A stretch of 64,000 bases of DNA from a bacterium (GTDB taxonomy: Bacteria; SAR324; NAC60-12), in the NCBI GenBank assembly GCA_965205865.1, contig CBDBHR010000028.1, positions 256,001 through 320,000 on the forward strand, read 5' to 3'. Positions 6,315-18,678 of this stretch are shown in pieces (the stretch's first letter is position 1; each line of letters begins with the position of its first letter). The translations under genes were made by a program, and so were the position numbers. Below the pieces are notes generated by a model that was not told the origin of the DNA, ran no database searches, and was given only the letters and a program-made list of their open reading frames with translations.

Positions 6315-6850
6315 ATGGCTGGAGTGACACAGTTCCTCTTAGACAATATGCCCAAAATGGATGACCGCGCGGCAAAATGGCTATCGGATGCAGTAGTACC
6401 GGGACCTTTCTTGACAAAGCCGCTAGATTGGTATGGCCCAAGCCAGCCAAGGACCGTTAAGCCCATACCTCGCTCAGAGTCTTCAATTAAGTTTGACGAG
6501 AAAAAAGAACGTGAGAACAATTACAAGAAATGGTCCGACAAATTTTCTGAGACGAAACCACATCGTTTTGTTGAAAAGCTGGGGAAGATACTGCACTCCA
6601 TTTTTCCCTCCACAAAAGTTCTCGCTCGCCTGGAACCGAACTGGCCGAATGGGAAAAGCATTGACTTTCTCATCCCATCCATAAAATAGCCTTCGCTTAT
6701 CAGCATTCAAATACACCTGATACCCGTATCTTGGAGGCTGTTAAATGGTGTGATGGAAACGGATACAGGCTTATCATGATTGACGGTCCCAACGCAGTAA
6801 CGGAAAGCTCTCTACGCTCGCGTCTCAGAGAAATGCTACTCGAACTATGA
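6315..6850 (+). pseudogene. Frameshifted hypothetical gene with a degenerate PD-(D/E)xK / DUF559-like C-terminal domain
   Basis: ORF stops at 6689 (...SIDFLIPSIK); a shifted frame continues IAFAYQH...KWCDGNGYRLIMID to TGA at 6850, matching a DF.IP..KIAxEYQ-type pattern. Confidence 0.45.
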
Positions 6851-6896
6851 GCAGCTCTTTCAGGACTATCTGATTCCGCTAAAAGTGGGTCAAGCC

Positions 6897-8378
6897 GTGC
6901 GCCAGGAAAGCTGGCAAGAAATAGAGAGTGAAAGTCTCTTACTCGGTAAGGCAGTAACGACCCGCCGAGTCCCCGAGTCATGAGTGGCTATTCGCAAGGA
7001 TAGGCGCTAAGCGTTGACAGGGGAGAACATAGGTTCGGTATTGAGCTCCGAAATCATAGTTTCAGGTGCTGACCTTGTAGTCTGCTGGGGAAGGCAATAT
7101 CAACCGAAGGCGTTAGCGTGAGTCTCGACTGAGCCTGGCGGAGTCGAAGACCCGGCGCATGTGTGGAAGTTTCTTGATCGGAACCTGGGAGATCCTGAAG
7201 ACGACTGTCAACATTCTATTGGTAGTCGGATCGGGAAAATTAATAAATAACCCCGATATCTACGTCTTCAGGAAGTCGGACAAGTTCGTAGTAGCGTGAG
7301 CAGCCGACAAGGCTGTGGATTTTGGAGAGTGAAAGTCTCTCTGTCGTCAGTTTCCCATTCGGGCGACTAGCATATCCGGTGCGCTTAGCAGGTAACTGCT
7401 TTGCGTTCTGCCCGGAAGTAAAAGTCACCGTCTGCTTTGGACGAGAGTCCATAGTGGGAGCCAACAGGGTGGCGAGCAAACCTGGAGGCCTGAACATTAG
7501 TGAATGATTGCAGCTCCGAAAGAGACTTCCGTCGTGAATTGGCTTGACGGTGTGTTGCCCAACCGCCGACCCGCTCGCTACTCGGGGAAGGCCGAAGTTC
7601 CAAGGGAAGTAATGGGAACAGGCACCTTGGAGGGAGCCGGAGTATGGATCCAAGCATCCAGGGAAAGATCCACAGAGATAACGTCGGGAAGGGCCAACTT
7701 CCAGCAGGGACTCGCAATAACCTGCAAGGACCTACCGTATAGGGTAACACCGAAATCGGCAGGAGGATTTTGGTCTGGCGCATGAGTCCGTATGAGCGAT
7801 GAAGACCGGGTAACGCTGGTCGAGGGGATGCTTGGACATCTCCCTTTTGGAGGTAACACCTCTAAAAGGCAAAGGGGCTCTCGGTAAATGGCGGGCATTT
7901 CATGAACCACTGCCGAACTTGTGTCGGTCAAGAGTGTCACCACAAAGAATGTCGAGCTGGAGATCAAATCACTCACTCCAGGGGTGAATGCAGGCGAGTG
8001 CTTAAGCTTCGGATTGGGTGGGAAGGGTTTCTGGGGAAACGCTGTTGCTGCCAACCGGACTCGGGAAATCCGACCGTCCGGGATGAGAGGGGGGCTTGCG
8101 GAAACGTGATGCAGGGTCTGACGCCCTTTTGCCACGAAACCGGAAACGGGGGATACATTGGAAGTCGTTGACCTAAACATGCGCGCGCCGTATTTCTACC
8201 CGGCATGAAGCGGCGAACAATGAGATCATTTGTAGAGAGTAACAATGCAAAGGAAATCAACGGAGCCTGTGGAGCAAAGGGACTTGGCTGAGAGGAATTC
8301 TGCTTGCCCTCCTGTGTTCGGAACTCAGAGGCCGGTAAAATCAGAGAGCGGTTTAAGCAGGGTGCGCCAAACGGCAAC
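6897..8378 (+). mobile_element. Outer group II intron (class E-like), 3'-truncated and interrupted in domain III by a second intron
   Basis: Starts GTGCG; domain I motifs (GTGAAAGTCTCT, ATTGAGCTCCGAAA, GGGGAAGGC, GGAACCTGGGAGA); GAAGTCGGA junction. Domain III resumes at 8205 (ATGAAGCGGCGAACAA...GGAGCAAAGGGACTTG). Intron-encoded protein start TQRPVKSESGLSRVRQTA then breaks off; no DV/DVI. Confidence 0.85.
7296..8204 (+). ncRNA. Inner ORF-less group II intron (909 nt), non-canonical
   Basis: Starts GTGAG; EBS1 loop GCTACT (7577-7582) is complementary to the 5' flank AGTAGC (7290-7295); DV-like hairpin 8052-8085; DVI ends TTCTACCCGGC with a bulged-A candidate at 8198; short DIV with no RT ORF. 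Confidence 0.85.
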
Positions 8379-8467
8379 GTTTACCTGACCAGGAACGCGG
8401 ACAATCAGTACCCAAATCTCACTGATCTTCAAGAATGGGTCATGTCCGATATTGAAAGGTTTGTGGC

Positions 8468-8670
8468 ATGACTATGTTGAAAAAGAATCCCCTTAAAATC
8501 ACCCCTATCAAAGGTAGTCCGATGCTGCATTGGGTGGGCAAGAAGCCGTTGGACGTGGAGCGGTATTTCCAGCACAGTTATGCGAAACCCGTCGGCGTGG
8601 ACAATCCACCGGCCGAGTCGTCATACTTGGAATTTGTGAAAAGCGATTACAATCTGCTTTTTCATGGGGA
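8468..8670 (+). pseudogene. N-terminal fragment of a type III restriction-modification methyltransferase (Mod-like), frameshifted and truncated
   Basis: KG.PMLHWVGKKPL followed by FPAQLCE in another frame and NLLFHGD, then unrelated sequence. Confidence 0.6.
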
Positions 8671-8869
8671 CACAGTGGTAAGCCCCCGGAGTTGTTACGA
8701 AAGGTTCCGGGTCAGTTCAGTTTTGGATGCTCTCAAGGGAAAAAATCATTTAAGGTATTGAAAATTGGTAAGCAGAAAATTAGATCGAGTGAAGAAACTG
8801 AAGAAATAATAGCTGGCATTCCCTGATATGAATATTCTGGTACTCTCCGGCGAAAGTGCGTAGATGCCC

Positions 8870-9262
8870 TCATTCACGACGGATTGGCATCAGTTTGACA
8901 TGCTCCTCCAGCCAGGAGAGAAGCTCCGCGAAGCGGAAGGAGTTGGTCTTGAACAGCTTCATAAAGTGATTATAGGCCTCGCGGTTATCGCAGTCGATGA
9001 AATGACTGTTCAGACGGAGGAAGGTATCGGTGGCGCCGAGAGCGGTACGTTTGTTACCGTCCACGAAAGGATGGTTCATAGCGAGACTCTCCATCAAGGC
9101 GGCAGCCTCTTCTATCAGTCCGTCGTAGTAACCCATCTGCGGGCGCAAGAGAGCGGATTCCAACGCTCCCATGTCACGAAGACCGGCGGCGCCACCTGTT
9201 TCTGAAAGCAAGGCGTCATGAATGGCCACGACTTCTTCGATAGTGGGGAAACTGCGGGTCAT
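8870..9262 (-). CDS. doc: Doc/Fic-family toxin (death-on-curing)
   Basis: HPFVDGNKRTA Fic motif and GLRDMGALESAL; 130 aa. Confidence 0.92.
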   Translation of the reverse strand: MTRSFPTIEEVVAIHDALLSETGGAAGLRDMGALESALLRPQMGYYDGLIEEAAALMESLAMNHPFVDGNKRTALGATDTFLRLNSHFIDCDNREAYNHFMKLFKTNSFRFAELLSWLEEHVKLMPIRRE

Positions 9263-9486
9263 TCAGCAAGCAATTCATAAAGCAGACGATTTTTCTCGAG
9301 GCTGGCCTGAAAGTGCGCCATCACCTCGGGGCGTACTTTCTCGCGGACCTTGTTTTCGATGTAGCCGCGCATGGCGTCTTCGAGGACTGCTTGAAAATGA
9401 CGGCCTTCCCGGCGGGCGATCGCTCGCATTTCCGACAACAACTCCGGCGAAGCCTGGCTCGAGAATTTTTCACGTGAAACATCCAT
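9259..9486 (-). CDS. Putative antitoxin of the Doc toxin (ribbon-helix-helix-like)
   Basis: 75 aa, overlaps the doc start by 4 nt, ends KNRLLYELLAE like Doc-associated antitoxins. Confidence 0.75.
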   Translation of the reverse strand: MDVSREKFSSQASPELLSEMRAIARREGRHFQAVLEDAMRGYIENKVREKVRPEVMAHFQASLEKNRLLYELLAE

Positions 9487-9650
9487 TACCGTACTCCTCT
9501 CTAATATGGCTCAATTATGGCTCTATGCGGTCACGGTTTCAAGATAAATCTTGATGGAAATTGATAAAAGGCCAACTTTGGAGGTTATGCCACGAATTCC
9601 TGCTTCAGCTCCTCCAGGATTCGGGGTAGTTGCTCACGGCTATCCGTCGG

Positions 9651-10562
9651 CATGGCGACGGCGATTTGTTGAAAAAGGAATAACAGGTCTTAATGATGAT
9701 CCGCGGCCCGGCAGGACACGCATTTATGGAGCGGATAAAATCGAAGAGATTGTGAAGAAAACCATTGAAGAGAAGCCTGAGGACCGTACCCATTGGAGCA
9801 CGCGATCGATGGCCAAGGCAGTTGGCGTAGGCAAGACAACCGTCGCTAAAGTATGGAAGGCCCATCGCCTCGAGCCTCATCTGGAAAAAACATTTAAGTT
9901 GTCGCATGATAAGCATTTCACTGCGAAACTGAAAGATGTCATCGGCTTGTACATGAATCCTCCTGAGAAAGCGCTGGTCTTGAGCGTCGATGAGAAATCA
10001 CAAATCCAGGCACTCGATCGCACCCAGCCAGGTCTGCCACTGAAACCAGGACGCAATGGCACCAGAACTCATGATTATATCCGTCATGGCACCTGCTGTC
10101 TGTTTACTGCTTTGAATACGCAGACAGGGGAAGTGCTCGCTCGCTGTGAAAAACGGCACCGACACCAAGAGTATCTGCGCTTCCTGCGTCTTATTGACAA
10201 GACTACCTCGAAGCAACTGCAGTTACACTTGATCCTGGACAATTACGCCACCCACAAACATCTTAATATGAAAGAATGGCTCAAAAAACACCCGCGATTT
10301 CACCCGCATTTCATTCCTACTTCCTCCTCATGGCTGAACATGGTGGAACGTTTTTTTGGCAAGATCACTGCAGAACGGATTCGACGAGGCGCCTTCAAAA
10401 GCGTGCTCGAGTTGACCGAAGCCATCCATAGTTACATCGAGACACACAATCGCAACCCAAAACCCTATGTCCGGACTAAAACTGCCGAAGAAATTATCAA
10501 CAAACTCAAACCGGTCTATCAAATGACCAAAATTACAATGTATTAACCGAGCAATACACTAG
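9651..10562 (+). mobile_element. IS630-family element, 5'-truncated (transposase within ORF 9551-10546)
   Basis: WRRRF...GL.D.PRPGR, THWSTRSMA, DDE motifs SVDEKS, LDNYATHK, WLNMVERFF; right end ...ATACACTAG. The first ~33 codons of the ORF are unrelated sequence. Confidence 0.88.
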
Positions 10563-12801: not shown

Positions 12802-13164
12802 AGTCCCGGAGGGACGAAAGGGAATAGCCCAGCGATTCATCGCTGGGAAAGGCCCCCTCCTCCTCCTCAGCTAGTCCCGGAGGGACGAAAGGGAATAGCC
12901 CAGCAATTCATCGCTGGGAAAGGCCCCCCTCCTCAGCTAGTCCCGGAGGGACGACACTTCTTCGATCTTTCGAGTTACTCCCATAAGGAAAAAGGTGCTT
13001 TTTGATTTCAGGAGTCATCCTCTCAATTCGGATTTTTGTGCTAAAGACACAATGAAGATGATTGCTGACGTAGGAATGGACATGAAACCTCATTGTTGTG
13101 TCGTCCCTCCGGGACTTTGAAGGAGACTGTCTTTTGTTCCCAGCTTCCTTTCGTCCCTCCGGGA
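12802..13164. mobile_element. REP-like palindrome cluster around a truncated IS200-type (Y1/HUH) transposase fragment
   Basis: GTCCCGGAGGGAC units at 12802, 12873 and 12939, inverted copies at ~13098 and ~13147; minus-strand fragment HSYVSNHLHCVFSTK...LFPY (~12975-13093). Confidence 0.8.
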
Positions 13165-18090: not shown

Positions 18091-18494
18091 CAAGAGCTTC
18101 AAAACCTTTAAAGAGATCGTCTATTACAGCCTCGAGTCGCTTGATTAAACCAACGTTAGTTCGAAGTAACTGCCGCATTCCGCTGGTCTGCTCGGCTTGG
18201 TGAGCGAAAGACGACGCGTGCGACGCGATTCGTATTGCCATGTTCAAAGTTACCTCAGCCAAGCGCGTGTTTTAACAAAACTGGCTTTTATCCGGTAAAC
18301 CTCGTAGAAAAGTTTTCGAGAAAAAAGTTGACAAATTTTCAAATTTTTAGTATTCAGATAGGTAATTCACAATTCTGGAGGTTGCGGTTCAATGCAATTC
18401 GCCAGGGAACATCATCGTTCTTTTGTGAAAATATAAGGAAAGGAACGGCACTCCCCTGTCGCCGATTCTAATCTTTTTTCTCTTTGATATAGTT

Positions 18495-18582
18495 GTTCGT
18501 TGGGGGTGGAAAAGCCACTGGACTTTTTCTGAGAAAAACCCTTGGAACCTGAACTGGGTAATACCAGCGTAGGAAATGCGAA
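18495..18582 (+). promoter_or_regulatory. TPP riboswitch
   Basis: GGGGTG...CTGAGA...ACCCT...AACCTGA...GGGTAATACCAGCGTAGGAA upstream of a thiamine-binding protein gene. Confidence 0.92.
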
Positions 18583-18678
18583 GGTACATTCGATCTCGAA
18601 TCAATCCCAAGTCGTTTCTTCCACGTCGTTTCTCCCCCTCCGAATATTTTCCTGATCCAATCAATTCGGAGTAGTCTC

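Follow-up and report, generated by a model that had tools for sequence, protein, structure and literature searches.

Features of the locus

The window, by which we mean the whole 64,000-nt stretch of contig CBDBHR010000028.1 that was analyzed, carries a group II intron (the outer or host intron) that is interrupted by a second group II intron (the inner intron). The features of both are collected in Table 1. In an Rfam scan, the outer intron is recognized by a domain I match to RF02005 at positions 6931 to 7153 (163 bits). It has 41 matches genome-wide, corresponding to ~40 copies in the 4.7-Mb genome; some of these copies contain an RT frame of 371 to 477 aa, and many of them are ORF-less forms of ~695 nt whose domain V has the canonical AGC. 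Most host-intron copies are ORF-less, and the 10 to 16 bases upstream of their GUGCG are conserved. The copy in the window ends after position 8382, without a domain V or domain VI, and the Rfam scan gave no RF00029 match in positions 6400 to 9000. The sequences that precede 6897 and follow 8382 are unique to this copy. The inner intron lies in the domain IV loop of this ORF-less host copy, 40 bases upstream of the remnant of the host's RT start.

A second insertion into the same host loop is found 6.6 kb beyond the window, where an ORF-less intron of 903 nt whose domain V has the canonical AGC (contig C28:326,614-327,516) is inserted 4 nt upstream in another outer copy. As inserted, this intron is without the first two bases of GUGCG, and the exon supplies GU. 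Downstream of the host copy in the window, ORF translations read by eye suggest a fragment resembling a DNA methyltransferase N terminus (8468 to 8761), a Doc/Fic-like toxin that has a small partner upstream (8870 to 9486, minus strand), and an IS630-like transposase (9551 to 10546). Farther along are two tandem matches to the Acido-Lenti-1 RNA on the minus strand (12802 to 12847 and 12873 to 12918; 55.9 and 50.1 bits) and a TPP riboswitch on the plus strand (18492 to 18593; 62.5 bits).

Table 1. Positions of the outer-intron and inner-intron features in the window
Feature	Positions	Strand	Basis or detail
Outer (host) group II intron, 5' part	6897..7296	+	Starts GUGCG at 6897; J2/3 GCA at 7157-7159
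IBS1, last 7 bases of the 5' exon (outer-intron domain IV loop)	7290..7296	+	7-bp perfect complement to 7576-7582
Inner ORF-less group II intron, family A member, 908 nt	7297..8204	+	Filled versus empty copies; end-to-end alignment with relatives
5' terminal UGAGC	7297..7301	+	Epsilon is G7300-C7301
Epsilon'	7410..7411	+	GC within a conserved UGC; L104 and L086 have a compensatory change
EBS1	7576..7582	+	Loop of hairpin 7570-7586; in relatives read by hand, the homologous loop pairs with the 5' flank
J2/3 GCA	7780..7782	+	G7780 is gamma and covaries with the last base
Domain V	8052..8085	+	Triad AAC 8053-8055; loop 8065-8069; bulge CC 8074-8075
Domain VI	8089..8204	+	Arm of ~70 nt at 8110-8179; branch candidate A8198; 3' end G8203-C8204; C8204 is gamma'
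Outer-intron domain IV remainder	8205..8382	+	Remnant RT-gene start at 8245; aligned with three other twintron copies

Boundaries of the inner intron and pairing with the exon

In all 7 of the empty outer copies examined, the insertion site reads ...GTAGTAGCG|ATGAAG (also read as AGCG|ATGAAG), and in filled copies it reads ...GTAGTAGC[GTGAGC...CCCGGC]ATGAAG. Since the empty copies keep G7296, the inserted DNA is the 908 nt from 7297 to 8204, placed after G7296, and this is the sole placement that fits both kinds of copy. G7296 is thus unambiguously the last exon base, and the inner intron starts with UGAGC. A sequence-only reading of this DNA had described a nested, precisely inserted group II intron at 7296 to 8204 with the 5' end GUGAG. 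The nested group II intron and the precision of its insertion are borne out with the boundary at 7297 to 8204, but the start at 7296 had to be abandoned because the empty copies retain this G, and with it the GUGAG end, which is UGAGC in this intron and GGAGC in the family consensus.

The pairing of EBS1 with IBS1 comprises 7 bp and includes G7296. By hand reading of the alignment, the same EBS1 register is found in 7 other relatives, and when it is applied to three loci (L123, L143, and L095), the intron gains one 5' base. Among relatives, the base aligned with G7296 is variable and the block after it is conserved. No credible ORF was found among the ORF translations of the inner intron.

There is also a perfect 9-nt complementarity between positions 7914 to 7922, in a hairpin on the domain IV side of the inner intron, and exon positions 7280 to 7288, upstream of IBS1. 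Only ~0.004 such 9-nt matches are expected by chance. The segment resembles EBS2, but it is at best a doubtful candidate, given its position in the domain IV-side hairpin and the fact that three relatives checked by eye do not share it.

Core of the inner intron

All of the letters listed in the sequence-only reading are present: GTGAG at 7296 to 7300, the ...ACCCGGC end at 8204, AAC at 8053 to 8055, GCA at 7780 to 7782, and GUUC at 7405 to 7408. The CC bulge (8074 and 8075) and the stems CCGGAC/GUCCGG and UCGG/CCGA are present as well, and the branch-A candidate 7 nt from the end is A8198, the seventh base from the end. Where a canonical intron has the triad AGC or CGC, the inner intron has AAC, and it has a UGAGC start and a GC end in place of the canonical 5' GUGYG and 3' AY. 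The middle base of the triad, A8054, faces both G8082 and A8083, which is one extra base on the 3' strand of domain V, and the domain V loop is the 5-nt sequence GAAAU. Rfam model RF00029 gives no match to the domain V of the inner intron even at E values up to 10, and RF02003 matches the 5' part of the inner intron below threshold (33.2 bits, E value of 4.5e-5, cutoff of 49).

In the MFE fold of domain VI, a run of G residues is paired with CUACCC and A8198 is bulged. Reading by eye shows that the branch motif CUA(U)CCC is conserved and that GGGAGG variants go together with CUAUCCC. The ~70-nt arm of domain VI is absent in three relatives (L123, L086, and L095) and in one RNA contig, in which 8109 is joined to 8180. 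MFE folding of the whole intron gives no clear signal (z score of -1.27).

A family of ORF-less relatives in metagenomes

A scan of metagenomes with an AAC-containing domain V pattern taken from the inner intron returned at least 123 stretches. The matches listed fall into two groups: an RT-type group and a group that we call family A, which consists of metagenomic introns of 828 to 928 nt with a domain V almost identical to that of the inner intron. Among the matches listed, the bulge is AC in 33 of 38 domains V of the RT-type group and CC in 41 of 43 domains V of family A. The 3' strand of the family A domain V has GGGAU plus one base. An extra purine on this strand recurs across the family: opposite the middle A of the triad there are two purines (8082 and 8083 in the inner intron), versus a single purine in the RT-type group.

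An nhmmer profile search of the fetched loci gave at least 42 distinct family A relatives that span domain V, all of which have AAC. Since the domain V pattern itself contains AAC, pattern matches cannot test whether AAC is fixed, and 40 of these 42 domains V had been retrieved with a pattern requiring AAC. Both of the relatives outside the pattern carry AAC, one of them together with three compensated changes in the lower helix, which brings the pattern-independent count to 3/3 with the inner intron included; fixation of AAC in family A is thus weakly indicated. Among the collected homologs, AAC recurs, the 5' consensus is GGAGC rather than GUGAG, and the 3' end is mostly AC rather than GC.

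The inner intron can be aligned over its entire length with 19 full-length relatives, at ~60 to 70% identity, and the lengths of family A members are too short for an ORF. RF02003 matches 18 of the 19 full-length relatives with 34 to 73 bits. In contrast with its matches to neighboring introns, RF00029 detects no family A domain V at E values up to 0.01 in the 20 loci scanned. At 7 of these 20 loci there is a neighboring or surrounding group II intron, representing three Rfam domain I types, and the RF00029 matches at those loci are the domains V of the neighboring introns only. Family A is also nested in itself, with one copy inside another (L144). At a further locus (L134, reverse strand, ~480 to 700), a family A intron is apparently inside the domain V hairpin of its host intron, and the 3' half of the host domain V directly follows the family A 3' end.

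Searches of related genomes and of viral contigs gave no additional family members. In blastn searches against 64 genomes of the order, the inner intron matched only its own genome. When 88 genomes of the phylum were searched for a 20-nt family motif, 2 mismatches being allowed, there were 6 foreign matches, none of them family A, and the reversed-pattern control had 2. A 17-nt 5' motif occurred in 118 stretches of viral contigs, but the nhmmer family profile found no family member in the 80 that were fetched, and we regard these as chance matches.

Covariation among family A members

Base pair counts were made on an alignment of 20 sequences, namely, the inner intron and its 19 full-length relatives. 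In domain V, all 12 pairs are kept in 20/20 sequences and 3 of them show compensatory changes. One of these is the pair just below the triad, which is GC in 11 sequences, CG in 8, and AU in 1 (paired in 20/20), and the other two are in the upper helix. The pairing of epsilon (7300 and 7301) with epsilon' (7410 and 7411) holds in 19/20 sequences (GC in 17, AU in 2, and other in 1); in the two relatives that have A at the first epsilon position (L104 and L086), the partner is U instead of C. The gamma-gamma' pair (G7780 with C8204) is kept in 20/20 sequences, as G-C in 16 and A-U in 4.

These counts bear on what had been described as a coordinated set of compensating changes. Because the compensatory changes place epsilon' at G7410-C7411, the GUUC at 7405 to 7408 does not have this role, and the epsilon-epsilon' interaction is an ordinary G-C/C-G pair located elsewhere. 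The placement of J2/3 at GCA 7780 to 7782 is upheld by the gamma covariation, but its supposed difference from the outer intron is not, since the GGCGCAUG motif is shared by the outer intron, where GCA lies at 7157 to 7159, and by AGC-type relatives. A J2/3 GCA that is also found in a canonical AGC-type intron does not change with the triad and is not compensatory. The terminal GGC is a minority variant, and the proposed set is not supported.

The ends of the inner intron are unusual even for family A. The first intron base is G in 17/20 sequences and U in 3/20, including the inner intron; the penultimate base is A in 16/20 and G in 2/20, including the inner intron; and in both cases of a penultimate G the intron begins with U. 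An interaction between these two positions has reportedly been found in canonical introns, a result attributed to Chanfreau and Jacquier in 1993, and the U and G ends could, in view of such an interaction, be a covarying pair rather than damage, with two cases only.

RT-encoding introns with an AAC triad

The same genome contains a single RT-encoding intron with an AAC triad, at contig C30:877,900-880,040 (L045). It has a 463-aa frame, the RT lies at 878.5 to 879.9 kb, the triad faces A, the apparent 5' end is UCGCG, and close to this end there are ~90 additional nt. At C30:42,600-43,060 there is a derivative of this intron that has undergone deletion and is without domain V. Relatives of L045 were searched by means of its RT protein, independently of domain V, and gave 16 loci with a visible domain V, of which 10 have AAC and 6 have AGC. 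Based on the alignment and on two copies in one genome, the RT-encoding AAC introns start with UCGYG, UUGCG, AUGCG, or UAGCG; the AGC RT-encoding introns, like the outer intron, start with GUGCG. As the introns are interrelated, this association between AAC and the 5' end may represent a single event. The RT-encoding AAC relatives match RF02005, as the host intron does.

Copies of the inner intron and their spread

There are 4 full inner-intron copies in the genome, all at the same outer-intron site. Three of them are mutually identical (0/909 different), and their host flanks differ at 12/578, 11/577, and 7/578 positions (1.2 to 2.1%). The fourth copy differs by a single 1-nt indel, and its host is truncated 149 nt upstream. 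In addition, a 197-nt 5' fragment (nt 1 to 197, 96% identical) is present at an unrelated site that is not part of a host intron. No flank difference is closer to the insert than 117 nt on the upstream side or 29 nt on the downstream side, and the surrounding tract, from -116 to +28, is identical in all copies. Identical inserts in diverged hosts point to recent independent homing of the inner intron. An nhmmer search found no other family A member in the genome, with or without an ORF, so an RT would have to come from another intron.

Our preferred reading, which we consider probable, is that the inner intron is a non-autonomous, mobile, ORF-less group II intron of a widespread family whose core departs from the textbook one in fixed ways. 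This core has a 5' GGAGC (UGAGC in the inner intron) rather than GUGYG, an AAC triad with two purines opposite its middle A in place of the G-U wobble, a domain V with CC as its bulge and a loop of 5 nt, and a domain VI that is usually enlarged. In the predicted pathway, EBS1 would hold exon positions 7290 to 7296, the bulged A8198 would attack the G7296|U7297 junction, and the pairing of G7780 with C8204 would set the 3' splice site. The excised RNA would then reverse-splice into this loop in other copies of the host intron and be copied into DNA by an RT supplied in trans from another intron of the genome. Catalytic activity is inferred from sequence conservation and from the copies being identical, and lariat formation and the source of the helper RT are predicted. 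The earlier proposal of a distinct lineage rather than decay is supported by these data: AAC, the CC bulge, and the extra purine recur, the pair flanking the triad covaries, and the copies look recently mobile.

Assembled RNA contigs of four metatranscriptomes were compared with the locus, and parts that they do not cover were treated as uninformative. The depth of the inner intron in these contigs is 6 to 11. A joint of 7296 to 8205, which skips 908 nt, occurs in 4/4 metatranscriptomes, and a joint of 7295 to 8205 was seen in none of the four. The former is also the sequence of ~36 empty host copies, and for this reason it fixes the register but cannot show excision. Contigs of a sponge metatranscriptome contain a domain V that matches 8050 to 8097 with 2 differences at a depth of ~400, compared with ~10 for the inner intron, which points to an abundant RNA of a relative from an unassembled or different genome.

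The distribution of the copies can also be explained without splicing. In this alternative, which we consider unlikely, the inner intron is a dead passenger that inserted once, does not splice, and was carried to four sites by copying of the host intron. Such an element would always be found at the same site of the same host, as it is, and one copy is in a 5'-truncated host, as expected if an unspliced composite was copied; the first and penultimate bases do depart from the family consensus, and the RNA joint of 7296 to 8205 gives no proof of excision. Joint copying of insert and host, however, is difficult to reconcile with an insert that is 0/909 different between hosts whose flanks are 1.2 to 2.1% different. 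Between the window copy and one other copy (C30a), there are 12 differences over 1486 nt, and the probability that all would lie in the flanks at random is ~1e-5. The 197-nt fragment at an unrelated site outside host introns also speaks against a passenger of this kind.

An explanation to which we give still less credence is that homologous recombination or gene conversion among the ~40 host copies spread the insert, with no retrohoming. The many near-identical host copies would serve as partners, and the tract from -116 to +28 that is identical in all copies is what conversion might leave; yet the flanks do not vary among the 7 empty copies that were compared over 40 nt per side, which makes the tract little informative. 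The EBS1-IBS1 match and the exact 908-nt insertion are predictions of reverse splicing, and recombination leaves the fragment at the unrelated site unexplained. Finally, although all of its letters are present and GUGAG resembles GUGYG, an intron of 7296 to 8204 in which GUGAG, GUUC, GCA, AAC, and the terminal GC compensate one another is very improbable, given the G retained at empty sites, the variable base before the conserved block, the RNA joint at 7296 rather than 7295, the position of epsilon' elsewhere, and the GCA of the AGC-type outer intron.

Comparison with known introns

The twintron arrangement as such is ordinary. Nested group II introns are said to occur in Methanosarcina acetivorans, in work attributed to Dai and Zimmerly in 2003, and introns, including ORF-less ones, reportedly home into other introns there; those introns are archaeal, and the likeness lies in the nesting, with family A found in itself and in several intron types. 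A closer parallel in bacteria is provided by the TeI3 introns of Thermosynechococcus elongatus (Mohr et al. 2010, PMC2882425), which, as described there, are ORF-less introns at one conserved domain IV site near the RT-gene start and form twintrons in which identical inner copies within diverged outer copies are interpreted as recent independent insertion. Mobilization by an RT in trans is shown in that work, and for the inner intron it is the mechanism that we propose. Two differences from TeI3 as reported in that paper are that the TeI3 introns derive by deletion from an ORF-containing intron of the same genome, whereas no ORF-containing family A member is found in this genome, and that the core nucleotides of the inner intron differ from those of its host.

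A review (PMC4424553) gives the catalytic triad as AGC, or CGC in IIC introns, and the canonical domain V that it describes is, like that of family A, a two-helix hairpin of 6 + 4 bp with a 2-nt bulge that precedes domain VI. In contrast with this canonical domain V, the middle base of the triad is A rather than G, and it faces G and A in family A or a single purine in the RT-encoding introns rather than U. According to Nagy et al. 2013 (PMC3753933), a 5-nt domain V loop is among the features of classes IIE and IIF, which resemble family A in having an IIB-like ribozyme with a small RNA and the 5-nt loop instead of a tetraloop; the associated RTs, as described for these classes, are without an endonuclease domain. 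Further marks of the two classes are an alpha' located at the tip of a DId3 stem-loop, one more DId3 bulge, and an RT of class E or F. The descriptions of the two classes in that paper include no AAC triad, no extra opposite base, and no GGAGC 5' end, and, in contrast with these classes, family A is without an ORF and has a 5' part that matches RF02003 rather than RF02005. A literature search of limited scope found no description of an AAC triad or of family A. ORF-less introns are rare in bacteria according to two sources, one of them an intron database paper (PMC3245105), and a 2022 survey describes a genome-wide pipeline in which domain V is found with RF00029 (PMC8919778).

Significance of the AAC triad

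We suggest tentatively, and with somewhat less than even confidence, that family A and the RT-encoding AAC relatives together are a mobile natural branch of group II introns without the triad G-U wobble. In this branch, the A would face one or two purines, the 5' end would not be GU, and the metal-binding triple helix would be built differently; the branch would have been overlooked because RF00029 is blind to it, and family A would be parasitic on introns, with no RT of its own lineage in the genome. The alternative catalytic triplex that the sequence-only reading put forward is, for now, an idea.

To our knowledge, the middle G of the domain V triad is taken to be all but invariant in group II introns, and the same holds for the corresponding G in spliceosomal U6. 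In well-studied introns, mutation of the triad G to A is highly deleterious, a point against our preferred reading. An abundant, selected, and apparently mobile lineage with A in the middle of the triad would be a natural experiment, and it would bear on the part that the G-U wobble plays in metal binding and in the formation of the triple helix. Since family A has no ORF, is common in metagenomes, and goes undetected by RF00029, ORF-less introns may be undercounted.
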